Part shown: one piece after another, positions 24,445-29,395 of the stretch | Position numbering within the stretch: the first letter of the stretch is position 1 | How the letters are laid out: each line of letters opens with the position of its first letter | Assembly: GCA_965262915.1 (NCBI GenBank) | Contig: OZ253564.1 | Coordinates: forward strand, 3,968,001 to 4,032,000 | From: Candidatus Spongiisociaceae bacterium | GTDB taxonomy: Bacteria; Actinomycetota; Acidimicrobiia; Spongiisociales; Spongiisociaceae | Length of the DNA: 64,000 nt | Direction: 5' to 3' | Notes under the pieces: generated by a model | Databases searched by the model: none | What the model saw: only the letters and a program-made list of their open reading frames with translations | What the model was told of the DNA's origin: nothing | Program-made: the position numbers and the translations under genes

Positions 24445-24628
24445 CAGGCAACTCTTGCGCTAGCCCGTTGCTACGCAATCTGCTCTTCGAGCCGTGCTAA
24501 GTTATGCTAACACGTAACAGAAACCCTGCCAAGTGTGTATTTCGTCACCGGGAGAGGACTCTCGGGCGGCGCTCGATTGGGCGATCTCGACGCACGCAGT
24601 GGTCCGCCACGACAAACCAGGAGGTGAA

Positions 24629-25987
24629 GTGAGAGTAGATTTCCAGCGGGTCGCCGAGCTTACCGACAAGATGGAGAAGGCACTGCGGGCCAAGGTGGAA
24701 CGGTCCGCCGGGTTCTTCGAGCGGGCGTTAAAGGTTCTCCCGGCCGGAGTCCCTTCTTCGTTCCAGGATCAACCTCCACACCCCATCTACATCACAGGCG
24801 GCGAGGGAACCCAGGTTTGGGACCTCGACGGTAACTCGTACACCGACTTCCACAACGGCTTCGGAGTGATGGTGATGGGCCATGCCCATCCCATCATCGT
24901 GGATGCCATACGGAAGGCGGCTGGGAAGGGCACGCACTTCGCCATGCCAACCGAGTCAGCGGTCCGGGTGGCCGAGGAATTGTCCCGGCGGTTCCGGCTG
25001 CCGAAGGTTCGCTTCACGAACTCCGGAACGGAGGCCACGCTCGAGGCCATCCACCTGGCCCGTGCCTTCACCGGTCGAGACACCATCGTCAAGTCGGAGG
25101 GGAGTTACCACGGCCATCACGATTCGGTCATGGTGTCGGTGCACCCCGACCCTGCCCAGATCGGGCCACGGGAGGCGCCCGTTTCCGTTCCCTTCACAGC
25201 GGGTATCCCTCAGGCCTTGGTCGACCTTACTTTGTTGGTCCCCTTCAACGATCCCGACGCTCTGGCGGAGCTGCTTTCCTCCCGCGACGACGTAGCCGGA
25301 GTAATCGTCGAGCCGATCATGCTCAACATCGGAGTGATCACGCCGAATGAGGGCTATCTGGAGGCGCTGCGGGAAATCACCGAGCGCCACGGAGTGGTGT
25401 TGATCTTCGACGAGGTCAAGACGGGGGCCACGATCGCTGCGGGCGGTGTCGGAGAACGCTACGGGGTACTGCCTGATTTGGTCTGTCTGGCCAAAGCAAT
25501 CGGAGGTGGCACCCCAATCGGAGCCATCCTCGGGACCGAGGAGATCATGGGACAGATCAGCGACGGCACCGTCAAGCAGCTAGGCACCTTCAATGGAAAC
25601 CCTCTCACAATGGCGGCCGCCGAAGCGACCCTCACGCGGGTATTGGACGACAAGGCCTACCGCCGGCTTGAGGAGGCTGGGAAGCAGATGGTGGAGGGGT
25701 GCCAAGCTATCTGTGACAAATACGATCTGCCCGCCTACGCGGTGGGCGTCTCCGCCAAGGGCTGCGTGATGTTCGCTGAGAAGGCCGTCACCGACTACCG
25801 CTCCTACGCAGACAACTTTCTCGAACCGCTCAACTACCTTGCCTGGCTGTACCACATGAACAACGGGCTGTTGATGACCCCAGGAGCGGACGAGCAGTGG
25901 ACGCTCTCCATCGCTCACACCGATGAGGAGTTAGACCGCTACGTAAGCGTCTTCGAAGAGTTCGCTCGGGACGTCACTCTCGGATAA
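24629..25987 (+). CDS. Class III PLP aminotransferase (glutamate-1-semialdehyde aminomutase-like)
   Basis: GGAGG then GTG at 24629; DLDGNSYTD, RFTNSGTEA, YHGHHD, IFDEVKTG, AKAIGGG, GTFNGNP. Confidence 0.88.
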   Translation: MRVDFQRVAELTDKMEKALRAKVERSAGFFERALKVLPAGVPSSFQDQPPHPIYITGGEGTQVWDLDGNSYTDFHNGFGVMVMGHAHPIIVDAIRKAAGKGTHFAMPTESAVRVAEELSRRFRLPKVRFTNSGTEATLEAIHLARAFTGRDTIVKSEGSYHGHHDSVMVSVHPDPAQIGPREAPVSVPFTAGIPQALVDLTLLVPFNDPDALAELLSSRDDVAGVIVEPIMLNIGVITPNEGYLEALREITERHGVVLIFDEVKTGATIAAGGVGERYGVLPDLVCLAKAIGGGTPIGAILGTEEIMGQISDGTVKQLGTFNGNPLTMAAAEATLTRVLDDKAYRRLEEAGKQMVEGCQAICDKYDLPAYAVGVSAKGCVMFAEKAVTDYRSYADNFLEPLNYLAWLYHMNNGLLMTPGADEQWTLSIAHTDEELDRYVSVFEEFARDVTLG

Positions 25988-26133
25988 GAGGCTCTTCGGA
26001 AATGAGTGGGGAGTCGGGGATCTGCCAGGGGGAGTGGTAATCCACCAGAAGTGAGGGGGGGTCCTCCATAATCGGGTGCTGGAAAACGACATCCGAGGCA
26101 GGAGGACCCCTGTGGAAGCTGATCCCTGCGCGC

Positions 26134-27411
26134 ATGTGCGAGTTGTTGGTAGGCCTGGGCGACGTTGATCTGGTGGGGATCAACGACTCGGGCGAGGGTG
26201 CACCTCTTGAGGTGGTGATCGGGTCCCGCAAGGCCCGCCCGTTGTGTGTGGCGTGTGGCGGCCCGGTGTGGTCCAAGGGTGAGCGGACGGTTGTGTTGGT
26301 GGATTTACCGGCGTTCGGTCGGCCTGTGCGGCTGCGGTGGCGGAAACGCCGTTGGACGTGCCCGAACCCCGACTGTGAGATCAGATCGTTCATCGAACAA
26401 GACCCCACGATTGGTCCCCAACGGGCGTTGTTGACATCCCGAGCGGCGCGGTGGGTGACCATCCAGGTCGGTCGGCGGGGCCGTCCGATCCAAGAGGTCG
26501 CCGCAGAGTTGGGTTGTGATTGGCATACGGTGAACAAAGAGGTTGGCCGCTGGGGCGAAGCGCTGCTGGAAGCCGACACCGATCGGGTCGGGACCGTCGA
26601 AGCTGTGGGAGTGGACGAGACGTTGTTCTGGCGTCGGGGCCGTTGGCGTACCAAAGTCTGGTGCACCTCTGTCGTCGACGTTGGCGGCCACCAGCTGATC
26701 GACATAGTCCCTGGTAGAACAGCAGAAAGCGCCGCAGCCTGGTTCCGGGCGCAGCCCACCGAATGGTGTGAGGCTATCCGCTGGGCGGTGTTGGACATGT
26801 CCGGTTCGTATCGGAAGGCGTATGACAGGGTGTTACCGCACGCTCTGCAGGTAGCGGACCCGTTCCACGTCATACGCCTCGCCAACCAGCGTCTCGACGA
26901 GGTACGACGCCGCACCCAGAACGAAACCCTCGGGCATCGAGGCCGCAAGGATGACCCGCTGTATCGGATACGGCGGCTCCTAACCGCTGCGCATGAGAGG
27001 ATCAGCGACCGGGGTCAAACACGGCTGCGTGGCCTCCTCGACGCTGGTGACCCCCACGGCGAAGTGCGCACAGCCTGGCACGCGAAAGAGACGGTACGAG
27101 GCATCTACGGGATCGAAAGTCCGGTCCTTGCTCTCCGATACACCCTCGGGCTCGCAGACGACCTCCAAGACGAATCCTGCCCACCCGAGATCAACAAGCT
27201 CGGACGTACCATCGCCCGCTGGACCCCCAGATCACCAACTGGCACATCTCGAAGGTAACCAACAGATGCCACCGAAGCCCTCAACAACCTAATCAAACGC
27301 ATCAAACGAGCAGCGTTCGGGTTACCCAACTTCGCGAACTACCGAATCCGCGCCCTTCTCTACGCCGGGAAACCCAACTGGGACCTACTCGCCACCGTCA
27401 CTCCCCACTGA
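26134..27411 (+). pseudogene. ISL3 transposase, frameshifted near 27223 and 27266
   Basis: CxxC zinc finger, VGVDET, LDMSGSY, ADPFHV; C-terminal TEALNNLIKRIKRAAFG..NF.NYRIR in another frame. Confidence 0.88.
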
Positions 27412-27429
27412 AATCCACTCATACTTAGA

Positions 27430-27610
27430 AGGTTCCTGGGCTAGGGCGGGTCTGACCCAACTGAAATCTGGCCTTGTGCCTTTTCATCGATCTGTCGGCC
27501 CGTTCCCGGCCTAGGGCGTAACCCCCTGACCCGGGGCGGATGTGACCTAATAGGAGCCTTCAACTTCTCCACCGTGAGTGGCCTGTCCAACCGCACACGG
27601 GTCCGGGATC
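27430..27610 (+). ncRNA. Predicted IS110 bridge RNA
   Basis: Two stem-loops with internal loops carrying ACTGAAATC (27460-68), TCATCG (27484-89), ATAGGAGC (27550-57), TGAGTG (27575-80) that match target and donor sites; RNA ends approximate. Confidence 0.8.
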
Positions 27611-27645
27611 ATAAGTGAGTCTATCCCCTAGAGGAGAAGAGCATC

Positions 27646-28875
27646 ATGGGAGAAGCAGACCAGATTATCTACGGTGGGGTTGACACCCATCGGGACGTCC
27701 ACGTAGCAGCGGTGGTGGATGGCGTCGGGCGGGTACTGGGATCGGAGTCTTTCGCGGTGGAGGAATCCGGTTATCGGCGAATGGTCACCTGGTTCGAGTC
27801 GCGGGGACAGTTGGTTCGGGTTGGGGTGGAAGGAACGGGTAGTTACGGCGCCGGCCTGGCCCGTTACCTGACCGAGATGAACATCGAGGTGGTGGAGGTC
27901 AACCGCCCCAACCGCCAACTACGCCGCCAGAAGGGCGGCAAGACCGACAGCGTCGACGCCGAGGCGGCAGCTCGGGCAGCTGCCTCGGGCGAAGCAACCG
28001 CGGTTCCCAAGTCCGGTGTGGGCCCGGTCGAGTGCATACGGATGCTGTGGGTGGTGCGCCGCTCCGCGGTCAAGGCCCGCACCCAGGCCGCTAACCAGAT
28101 ACATGCGCTGGTCGTAACAGCTCCCGAGCCGCTAAAACACCAGCTAAAGGGCATGAATCTCAAAGCACGGGTCAAAACCTGTGCCCGGTTCCGACCCGGC
28201 ACAGACCACACCACCACCGCGTATGCGAAGCGTGCCCTACAGCATTTGGCCCGCCGGTATCAGGCCCTCGACGTAGAGATCGCCCAACTCGAAGCCGAGA
28301 TCCGGCGTCTCTGCGCCCAGGCCAACCCGGCCCTGCTGGCCACAGAAGGTGTCGGTCCTGACACAGCCGCCGCGTTGTTGGTCGCCGCCGGCGACAACCC
28401 CAAGCGAATGAAATCGGAACGGTCTTTCGCGGCGCTGTGCGGCGCCAGCCCCGTCCAGGCGTCATCAGGACGAACCCTTCGGCATCGTCTCAACCGGGGC
28501 GGCAACCGCCAAGCCAACAACGCGCTATGGCGGATCGCTACCACCCGGATGCGCACCGACGCCGCCACCAAAGCCTACGTGGCACGACGCAAGGCCGAGG
28601 GCAAGAAGAAAAAGGAGATCATCCGCTGCCTCAAGCGGCACATCGCCCGAGAAATCTACCGGCTCCTCACCAACCCGCACCCAACCCCGAACTGCGCCCG
28701 CCTACGCACCCGACGCCAACAACGCGGCATCACCCTCACCCAGACCGCCCAAGCCGTCGGAACCCACCCCAATCGCATCTCAGCACTCGAACACGGCCGA
28801 GACCACAACCACCACCTCGCCACCCGATACCAGAACTGGCTGCACACCCACCAAACCGCCCCATCATCGATTTGA
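27646..28875 (+). CDS. IS110 DEDD recombinase with C-terminal XRE-like HTH
   Basis: GVDTH, VEGTG, KTDSVDA (DEDD), QASSG serine loop, RGGNRQAN; tail LRTRRQQRGITLTQTAQAVGTHPNRISALEHG. Confidence 0.93.
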   Translation: MGEADQIIYGGVDTHRDVHVAAVVDGVGRVLGSESFAVEESGYRRMVTWFESRGQLVRVGVEGTGSYGAGLARYLTEMNIEVVEVNRPNRQLRRQKGGKTDSVDAEAAARAAASGEATAVPKSGVGPVECIRMLWVVRRSAVKARTQAANQIHALVVTAPEPLKHQLKGMNLKARVKTCARFRPGTDHTTTAYAKRALQHLARRYQALDVEIAQLEAEIRRLCAQANPALLATEGVGPDTAAALLVAAGDNPKRMKSERSFAALCGASPVQASSGRTLRHRLNRGGNRQANNALWRIATTRMRTDAATKAYVARRKAEGKKKKEIIRCLKRHIAREIYRLLTNPHPTPNCARLRTRRQQRGITLTQTAQAVGTHPNRISALEHGRDHNHHLATRYQNWLHTHQTAPSSI

Positions 28876-29109
28876 CAACCATAGGAGCATCGATGAGCCG
28901 GATAAGAGCGGCGGAAGGCTGCAGTCCGTTCAGTTTGCGGGTTCGGTGCGGGAGAAATTGGGAGCGCAGCGTGGTGTCCTCCGGCACACCCCTGGCGAGA
29001 AGGTTACGAACGGCAGGTGCATCTCCGAGGCGCTCGGTTGCAACACAATCTCGTTCGCCACGCGCGATGGAGGCCGTGTCTGGCCACAAACCGGATACCT
29101 CGCAGAAGC

Positions 29110-29138
29110 CGAAAACCCTTGCACTGCAAGGGTTTTCG
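29110..29138 (-). terminator. Hairpin terminator downstream of tRNA
   Basis: CGAAAACCCTTGC-ACT-GCAAGGGTTTTCG. Confidence 0.75.
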
Positions 29139-29142
29139 TTCG

Positions 29143-29217
<75 letters not shown>

Positions 29218-29285
29218 TCGATTGGATTCATGATTGTAGCGCATTTCTCCGGGTTTGGCTACGGCACCGGGCCCCCGGTTGTCGG

Positions 29286-29395
29286 CTACAGACCGGCCGC
29301 GAAGTTGAGTGCCTCGTCGAAGGTGGCGTCCTGAAGTAACAGCCGGCGTATCTTGATCAACGGCCGATCATGTCGATGGATAGAGCGACAGCATC
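29286..29395 (-). pseudogene. C-terminal remnant of a ferredoxin reductase
   Basis: PLIKIRRLLLQDATFDEALNFAAGL* parallels PLMKMRRLVLGQASFDEALEFAAGL* of 54323-55549. Confidence 0.75.

Follow-up and report, generated by a model that had tools for sequence, protein, structure and literature searches.

What decides the landing place of an insertion sequence when copy after copy is found at the same spot in the end of another transposon? This question is raised by a 64,000-nucleotide stretch of a Candidatus Spongiisociaceae bacterium genome (hereafter the window; genome positions 3968001-4032000 of 5.06 Mb in one contig, labelled G000 C1), in which an IS110-family element of 1475 bp divides the right inverted repeat (IRR) of an ISL3-family element. 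Elements of both families are abundant across the source genome. A sequence-only reading of the locus had proposed that the left end of the IS110 element carries bridge-RNA guides set for the ISL3 IRR. Here, that proposal is supported by covariation between loops and flanks among homologous elements. It is considered, at a probability of about 0.9, that 27417-28891 is an IS110-group insertion sequence which moves by bridge-RNA-guided recombination as IS621 does.

The boundaries of the element are defined by its empty site. Excision of 27417-28891 had been predicted to restore the ISL3 IRR, and the restored 25-mer is indeed found intact 12 times elsewhere in the same genome, together with three copies of a GAAGAGCC variant and one of GAAGAGCT. 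Because such uninterrupted 25-mers occur, it can be stated that the empty site has CC and that a single C accounts for all ambiguity in the insert boundary. The target-site duplication of the ISL3 element was likewise found on both sides, including the left copy, whose coordinates had been missing from the sequence-only reading. Within the element, 229 nt of non-coding sequence precede the recombinase gene at the 5' end and 16 nt follow its stop codon. There are no terminal inverted repeats, since ACTCATA... and ...GGAGCATC are not inverted copies of each other. This arrangement, with the non-coding region upstream and so short a tail past the stop codon, does not correspond to that of the IS1111 group. 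No sub-terminal inverted repeats were noted in the element, no search aimed at such repeats having been made.

The recombinase is recognized by DEDD_Tnp_IS110 (PF01548, 1.2e-23), by Transposase_20 (PF02371, 1.7e-19) and by NF033542, “IS110 family RNA-guided transposase” (210 bits, cut-off 140). In the alignment with IS621 (8wt6, E 9.5e-12, best stretch 188 residues), D13, E62, the D..D pair and the SG serine motif of the query lie opposite identical residues of IS621, the catalytic residues of the latter being identified from passages of PMC11208158. All features tested place the element in the IS110 group, the only exception being the CT core found in the IS621 subgroup. The tail of the recombinase (28696-28803, residues ~351-386) is an XRE-type helix-turn-helix, with hits to HTH_31 (3.6e-06) and HTH_3 (1.7e-05). 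Among the 120 matches listed for the recombinase, most homologues are ~409 aa long and many have the same Pfam hits.

The four guide segments that had been read from the letters are all in place, and they lie in two internal loops with the layout of the IS621 bridge RNA. In the first loop, the left target guide ACTGAAATC (27460-27468) is identical to the left flank at 27407-27415, and the right target guide TCATCG (27484-27489) is the reverse complement of 28891-28896. In the second loop, the left donor guide ATAGGAGC (27550-27557) is identical to the element's right end at 28881-28888, and the right donor guide TGAGTG (27575-27580) is reverse-complementary to 27416-27421. When the 229-nt left end was shuffled 200,000 times (mononucleotide shuffles), the single words appeared 89, 11187, 513 and 8905 times, and all four together 0 times. 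The guides suit the IRR and not the left inverted repeat (IRL), as had been claimed. The IRL, which reads ACTCCCCACTCATTTCCGAAGAGCC in the same orientation, matches at 6/9 and 4/5 positions, and 0/17 copies lie there.

The fold of the left end was analyzed with 14 aligned sequences, through RNAalifold and constrained folds. In RNAalifold, the first domain forms a long stem (27438-27456 with 27494-27512), an internal loop with both target guides, and a small distal hairpin (27470-27480). Sixteen well-aligned stem pairs are paired in 100% of cells, with 2 compensatory changes, compared with 28-46% when the pairing is slid. Column-based counting of the lower stems was dropped because indels shift homologous pairs into different columns. 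Within the internal loop, the last base of the right guide is the core-pairing G, and the AT that follows (27490-27491) complements donor positions 8 and 7 in a handshake-like manner. The second domain has a basal stem of GCGG.UG.GAC with GUC.CA.CCGC, which appears in 14/14 sequences only once the guide segments are held unpaired. Its compensatory changes run from UG/CA to CA/UG and from GCGG to GAGCGG. In the donor loop, the handshake-like GC at 27581-27582 faces target position 8. Of the two stem-loops proposed earlier, the first thus stands on the RNAalifold result, the second is obtained only with the guides held open, and the single-sequence fold is uninformative on either. The single-sequence fold was not used, as it pairs both target guides with each other. 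In that fold, GAAGGUUCC (27428-27436) also pairs with GGAGCCUUC (27553-27561), which overlaps the left donor guide; this pairing could be chance or a self-masking helix.

If the loops choose the target, homologues with altered loops should lie in correspondingly altered flanks, which is the check that the sequence-only reading had named. Exactly this is observed. Seven target-loop types with common donor ends are present in the genome, namely the ISL3-type and six other co-resident subfamilies, the ends of which read ACTCATA...TAGGAGCATC as here. They have a common loop scaffold (GUCUGAC, 12 nt, UGGC ... GCC, 8 nt, GAUCUGUC), within which the variable segments differ. The ISL3-type loop matches 16/17 of its sites at 13-14/14 guide positions, and each of the six other types matches its first-listed own site equally well (13-14/14). 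Against the sites of other types, the loops match at a mean of 6.2 and a maximum of 12 of 14 positions. In a permutation test, in which the one off-target site discussed below was entered for the ISL3-type loop, 1/5040 assignments, the true one, reached the observed sum. Uninterrupted empty targets are known for 5/7 types, by which the insert boundaries of these five are fixed. Furthermore, among 40 related genomes that were searched, five provided left ends, and these display further loop types with flanks that follow the loops. Covariation extends to the donor side, where GTAGGAGC right ends pair up with GUAGGAGC loops and one ATAGAAGC right end is accompanied by AUAGAAGC.

The same comparison bears on the idea that the protein chooses the site, for example through a C-terminal helix-turn-helix tail that reads the ISL3 repeat, with the loop matches being incidental. 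The HTH_31/HTH_3 tail is an additional part of this recombinase for which the 328-residue chain of IS621 has no room, and the action of an RNA at the site is presumed by analogy with IS621. However, the tails are of equal length in all subfamilies (409-415 aa frames), and yet these subfamilies land in different sequences, which follow the loops and not the proteins. Together with the joint absence of the four guide words from all shuffles, this renders choice by the protein highly improbable.

Insertion at the ISL3 site has occurred repeatedly. Copies with the ISL3-type target loop number 17 and belong to two subfamilies with a mutual identity of only 81%. Of these copies, sixteen are located between ACTGAAATCC and GA[T/A]GAGCC in ISL3 right repeats, in one orientation and with 16 different outer flanks, while 0/32 ISL3 left repeats are occupied by them. 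Insertion is scarless and orientation-specific, with 16 cases at one position and a sequence after removal that is found intact 12+4 times. An identical junction in 16 places might also be expected if the ISL3 and IS110 elements formed one composite copied by the ISL3 transposase, so that the junction represented one old insertion, and two groups of occupied ISL3 copies do have a mutual identity of 97-98.8%. In contrast, pairs of IS110 copies that are 99.3-100% identical reside in ISL3 copies that are 88-94% identical in 13/14 pairs (98.6% in the other), and the identity matrices of IS110 and ISL3 are uncorrelated (Spearman 0.15, p 0.18). Separate insertions, and not one copied composite, are therefore indicated. 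Moreover, both IS110 subfamilies occupy the same spot in spite of their divergence, and sixteen intact empty targets persist. The composite transposon was rejected on the identity comparison and is scarcely credible.

With regard to copy number, one other copy in the genome is 100% identical to the element in the window, seven are 99% identical and ~8 are 81% identical, and one of the seven 99% copies is interrupted by an ISL3. Nested elements are present at 4174163-4178303, where an A-type IS110 in an ISL3 right repeat is interrupted near its 3' end by a full ISL3 (4176829-4178260). A search of 185,579 species' genomes for the 18-base junction word gave 5 loci, of which 2 are real (both in one Acidimicrobiia genome) and 3 are chance matches.

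The junctions also reveal the nature of the crossover core. All donors and all targets have C immediately before the cut. At position 8, T is found in the donor and C, A or T in the targets (donor TC; targets CC, AC, TC), so the CT core dinucleotide of IS621-like members is not present and only C is common to donor and target. The one-base core suggested by the sequence-only reading accordingly holds in the sense that only this C is common at the junction in every subfamily. In 16/16 ISL3 junctions, the C of the target is kept on the left and the T of the donor on the right. For IS621, passages of PMC11208160 and PMC11208158 describe a CT dinucleotide that is common to donor and target and takes part in all four pairings, with top-strand cleavage following T9. 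T9 hardly varies and C8 is less conserved; after exchange, the two bases that follow each right guide on its 3' side form pairs with the other DNA. A less conserved first core base is also reported in PMC11208158. The CT core is a trait of the IS621 subgroup and not of the whole IS110 family. In the present target loop, the core G is followed by AU, which fits donor T8 and A7. In the donor loop, the core G precedes a G when C stands at target position 8, and a U when A stands there. Within one subfamily, the handshake-like base switches with the target, GUU accompanying a target that ends in ..AACC at the cut in G000 and UUU accompanying ..AAAC in G001 and G002. From these sequences, we read the junction as a probable one-base core flanked by handshake positions, in which the IS621 scheme would be varied and not abandoned.

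The coordinates of the features are collected in Table 1.

Table 1. Features of the IS110-family element and of the surrounding ISL3-family element, in window coordinates.
Feature	Position	Strand	Basis or remarks
ISL3 target-site duplication, left copy (8 bp)	25982-25989		GGATAAGA
ISL3 left inverted repeat (IRL)	25990-26014	+	GGCTCTTCGGAAATGAGTGGGGAGT; 29+3 copies genome-wide, 0 occupied
ISL3 transposase frame, shortened	26134-27258	+	Pfam DDE_Tnp_ISL3 2.4e-36; NCBIfam NF033550 228 bits
ISL3 IRR, inner 17 bp	27400-27416	+	ACTCCCCACTGAAATCC; left target ACTGAAATC at 27407-27415, crossover C at 27416
IS110-family element, 1475 bp	27417-28891 (equally 27416-28890; C ambiguous)	+	removal restores empty site
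-10-like hexamer CATACT	27420-27425	+	CATAAT in sister copies; putative promoter part
Target-binding loop domain	27438-27512	+	RNAalifold; pair counts; guide-flank covariation
Donor-binding loop domain	27536-27594	+	constrained folds, 14/14 sequences; donor guide covaries with right end
Recombinase gene, 409 aa	27646-28875	+	DEDD RuvC-like, Transposase_20 with serine motif, C-terminal helix-turn-helix tail (~351-386)
Short right end	28872-28891	+	-35-like TTGACA 28872-28877 (overlaps stop codon); left donor sequence ATAGGAGCATC
ISL3 IRR, outer 8 bp	28892-28899	+	GATGAGCC; right target = first 5 bases
ISL3 target-site duplication, right copy (8 bp)	28900-28907		GGATAAGA

A process for delivery of the element to its site can be proposed on the model of IS621. 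The 5' non-coding end would encode an RNA with two internal loops, the first of which would pair with the target and the second with the element's own joined ends (AUAGGAGC to the right end, UGAGU plus G to the left end). The 409-aa DEDD/serine recombinase would then swap strands beside the single common C, with the result that the element comes to lie 8 bp from the end of the ISL3 IRR, invariably in a single orientation and with no duplication. By analogy, the RNA is presumably made and bound, a circle is presumably formed, and the order of strand exchange may be that of IS621. In the integrated state, no sigma-70-like promoter was found. If the ends were joined in a circle, TTGACA of the right end and CATACT of the left end would lie 17 nt apart, and a promoter would form only on such joining. 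The insertion very probably immobilises the ISL3 copy, because the outer 8 bp of its repeat are parted from the rest. For the IS110 element, the abundant ISL3 copies may represent a supply of harmless landing sites.

With respect to expression, the non-coding end is covered by contigs from one metatranscriptome (27358-27560) and from a further run that is presumably RNA (27418-27579), and one of these contigs spans the ISL3/IS110 junction. The recombinase gene is almost uncovered, a contrast that counts as no finding.

Several observations weigh against guidance by a bridge RNA as described. The donor-loop stem was not recovered by unaided RNAalifold from the MAFFT alignment, and the single-sequence fold of the left end is no better than that of shuffles (z = -1.21). 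An Rfam search of 25900-29300 gave no bridge-RNA family, only a tRNA and a sub-threshold radC match. The contigs over the non-coding end are no proof of a transcript and could derive from DNA, and the four runs, available as contigs only with no joints or ends, revealed no circle junction. Where target position 8 is T, as in 4 types, the handshake-like base is U and unpaired. The left guide occurs in two registers, since its 9-mer includes the crossover C in 4/7 types and stops one base short of it in the other 3/7, the ISL3-type included. Wobble pairing of the conserved U after the left guide with the core G is a possible account of the two registers. Finally, the guides of one B-type copy (3663632-3665109) match its site at only 6/14 positions, and from end to end this copy has 98.9% identity with one that occupies an ISL3 repeat. 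An unchanged loop set in unrelated flanks was what the sequence-only reading had held to speak against it; this applies to 1/17 copies, too few to overturn it.

For this off-target copy, partial matching as in IS621 is a possibility, off-target insertion of that kind being reported in 10.64898/2026.08.31.748434; trans guidance by a sibling loop is another. Three comparisons did not account for the copy. The site matches the B' loop at 12/14 positions, but only in a shifted register; it resembles the donor halves at only 5/10 and 2/5 positions; and a mosaic is ruled out by the full-length identity given above. The copy is situated in the 3' end of another repeated element, and empty sites related to its site read AAAGAACCCCGCCACCGCC.

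It remains to be considered what the insertions mean for the ISL3 elements. The ISL3 transposase in the window is 374 aa long compared with 443-453 aa in intact copies. When compared with an intact copy it is seen to be broken, with the conserved C-terminal part running on in other frames to the TGA at 27409-27411. The 9-mer matched by the left guide contains this stop codon of the transposase and overlaps its last His codon, and because of this overlap the left target is constrained both as a repeat and as coding sequence. Genome-wide, 16/32 cognate ISL3 right repeats are occupied and 16/32 are empty. A transposase frame of at least 400 aa is kept by 3/13 occupied full-length copies, compared with 15/16 empty copies with the same repeat (Fisher p 2.6e-4). 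A repeat variant reading ACGC beside the crossover is occupied in 0/8 cases, compared with 16/32 for the cognate repeat (p 0.013). Frame decay and the unoccupied variant are compatible with a disabling parasite, and fit equally well with older copies that were hit and have decayed for longer. The earlier suggestion that the IS110 element disables its host thus agrees with the broken genes in occupied copies, at the level of an inference, since copy age could give the same pattern.

A serious alternative, to which we would give somewhat less than even odds, accepts the same mechanism and differs only in its view of the ISL3 repeat. The repeat would be a safe and abundant landing pad, comparable to the REP sequences used by IS621 and ISPpu10, with any harm to ISL3 incidental and gene decay a matter of copy age. 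Repeated mobile-element sequences also serve other subfamilies of the genome as targets, 16/32 cognate repeats remain empty, and the three occupied copies with an intact gene point in the same direction. On the other hand, the transposase is broken in 10/13 occupied and 1/16 empty copies, and the guide-mismatched variant is spared throughout, contrasts which copy age or lineage could nevertheless explain.

Variant ISL3 right repeats are located at ~307506, 480775, 1603289, 1721703 and 3228657, and all are unoccupied. One has a single C (ACTGAAATCGATGAGCC), and several read ACTGAAACGCGATGAGCC. The four full-length ISL3 copies with the ACTGAAACGCGATGAGCC repeat have a common 236-aa truncated frame. 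In the window, the ISL3 element is preceded by a 484-aa frame (24533-25987); its stop codon lies within the left duplication copy, so ISL3 landed exactly at the end of this gene. A tRNA gene (29143-29217, - strand; Rfam) lies 236 bp past the ISL3 duplication.

A wider view is opened by the sister loops, the targets of which comprise the IRR of one ISL3, both inverted repeats of a second ISL3, the gene of another IS110-type transposase, and the end of a further repeat. It could be imagined that the clade of IS110 elements with helix-turn-helix tails consists of RNA-guided hyperparasites of other insertion sequences. With donor loops and ends interchangeable, the target loop of any resident copy might in principle direct a sibling's circle, and the cell would thereby possess a shared “guide library” which immobilises ISL3-family elements. 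The ISL3 repeats may in turn be escaping through mutation beside the crossover base. This broader proposition is speculative, and we regard it as doubtful.

The individual sister targets are as follows. The second ISL3-family element (541943-546193; L027, L028) encodes a 398-aa transposase (DDE_Tnp_ISL3 3.8e-59), and both of its inverted repeats hold C-type IS110 copies in opposite orientations, between GGCTGCGCGAAAAC and GTGGGTT. The B' subfamily (1730357-1731886, L019; also 1292074 and 715372) interrupts another IS110-family transposase gene within its Transposase_20 region, the junction falling between the GKEH and NAA codons, with a flank recognized by PF02371 (Pfam, 1.8e-23); no empty copy of this target was found in the genome. 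The D subfamily (962696-964181) has nine empty sites, for example at 617926. Its target, CCGGGAAACC followed by CGGGGCGGTTCA across the junction, ends another repeated element, and the copies printed diverge directly after TTCA. Finally, an orphan target loop at ~4427097 (- strand) has the left guide TTGACAAAC and a right guide complementary to ATAGA. It resembles the right end of these IS110s (GATTTGACAACC and ATAGGA on the two sides of the junction), and a relative in G002 (L072) lies after CCGATTTGACAACC. The IS110 of the orphan loop is possibly aimed at the ends of sibling IS110s.

Comparison with known systems shows how closely the element follows published examples. As in IS621 and ISCro4/IS622, a two-domain DEDD and serine recombinase is accompanied by a putative RNA-encoding region 5' of its gene. 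As in IS621, the left guide of each of the two loops repeats the top strand and the right guide is complementary to it, a core-pairing G stands 3' of each right guide, and the next bases fit the other DNA in handshake-like fashion. The -35-like and -10-like hexamers of the right and left ends, which would be united only in a circle, recall the promoter arrangement of IS621. In sequence, the similarity to IS621 is only distant (E 9.5e-12, best stretch 188 residues). In contrast to IS621, one C and not CT is shared at the crossover here, with T at donor position 8 and C/A/T in the targets. The right guides have 5 bases plus the core, compared with a natural four-base guide, core included, in IS621. 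The left guide stands in two registers, the protein has a C-terminal helix-turn-helix tail, and the target is a transposon end instead of a REP sequence.

Other relatives resemble the element in their choice of target. ISEc21, described with its seekRNA in PMC11187229, belongs to the IS110 group and has its non-coding region upstream, with an RNA matching both target strands. Its natural target is a conserved stretch of IS3-family transposase genes, and a relative with altered guide bases occupies an altered target (PMC11187229). Unlike here, ISEc21 targets a coding region and not an inverted repeat, and no ISL3 target is described in the excerpt of that paper. IS4321/IS5075 are elements with DEDD transposases that occupy one position, in one orientation, in Tn21-family terminal inverted repeats (PMC11187229). 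They belong to the IS1111 group, with sub-terminal inverted repeats and a downstream non-coding region (PMC11187229), whereas that region is upstream here. In Pseudomonas putida, the IS110-family elements ISPpu9/ISPpu10 are present in many copies in one repeated genomic sequence, and the promoter at their circle junction is flanked by CT (10.64898/2026.03.19.712850); unlike here, they use a REP stem-loop target and a CT core. No IS110 element with an ISL3 target was found in the literature at the level of titles and abstract openings, and the supplementary target tables of PMC11208160 and PMC11187229 may list one, or single-base cores. ISL3 is unmentioned in one large comparative preprint.

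Parasitism of another mobile element by IS110-type elements is not new, being already known from ISEc21 and IS4321/IS5075, and no new field is opened, because the mechanism is already established for IS621. What the locus provides is a natural experiment, in which at least seven re-programmed target loops with a common scaffold and donor coexist in a single genome, empty and filled sites being available for most of them. Without a library screen, it displays which loop positions nature re-programs. It also furnishes evidence that a single common crossover base can suffice, that the adjoining position behaves in a handshake-like manner, and that the left guide tolerates two registers. Furthermore, the prey list of IS110-type elements is widened to the inverted repeats of the ISL3 family. 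For the biology of such genomes, the question is thereby raised of whether IS110 elements of this kind curb the spread of other insertion sequences.

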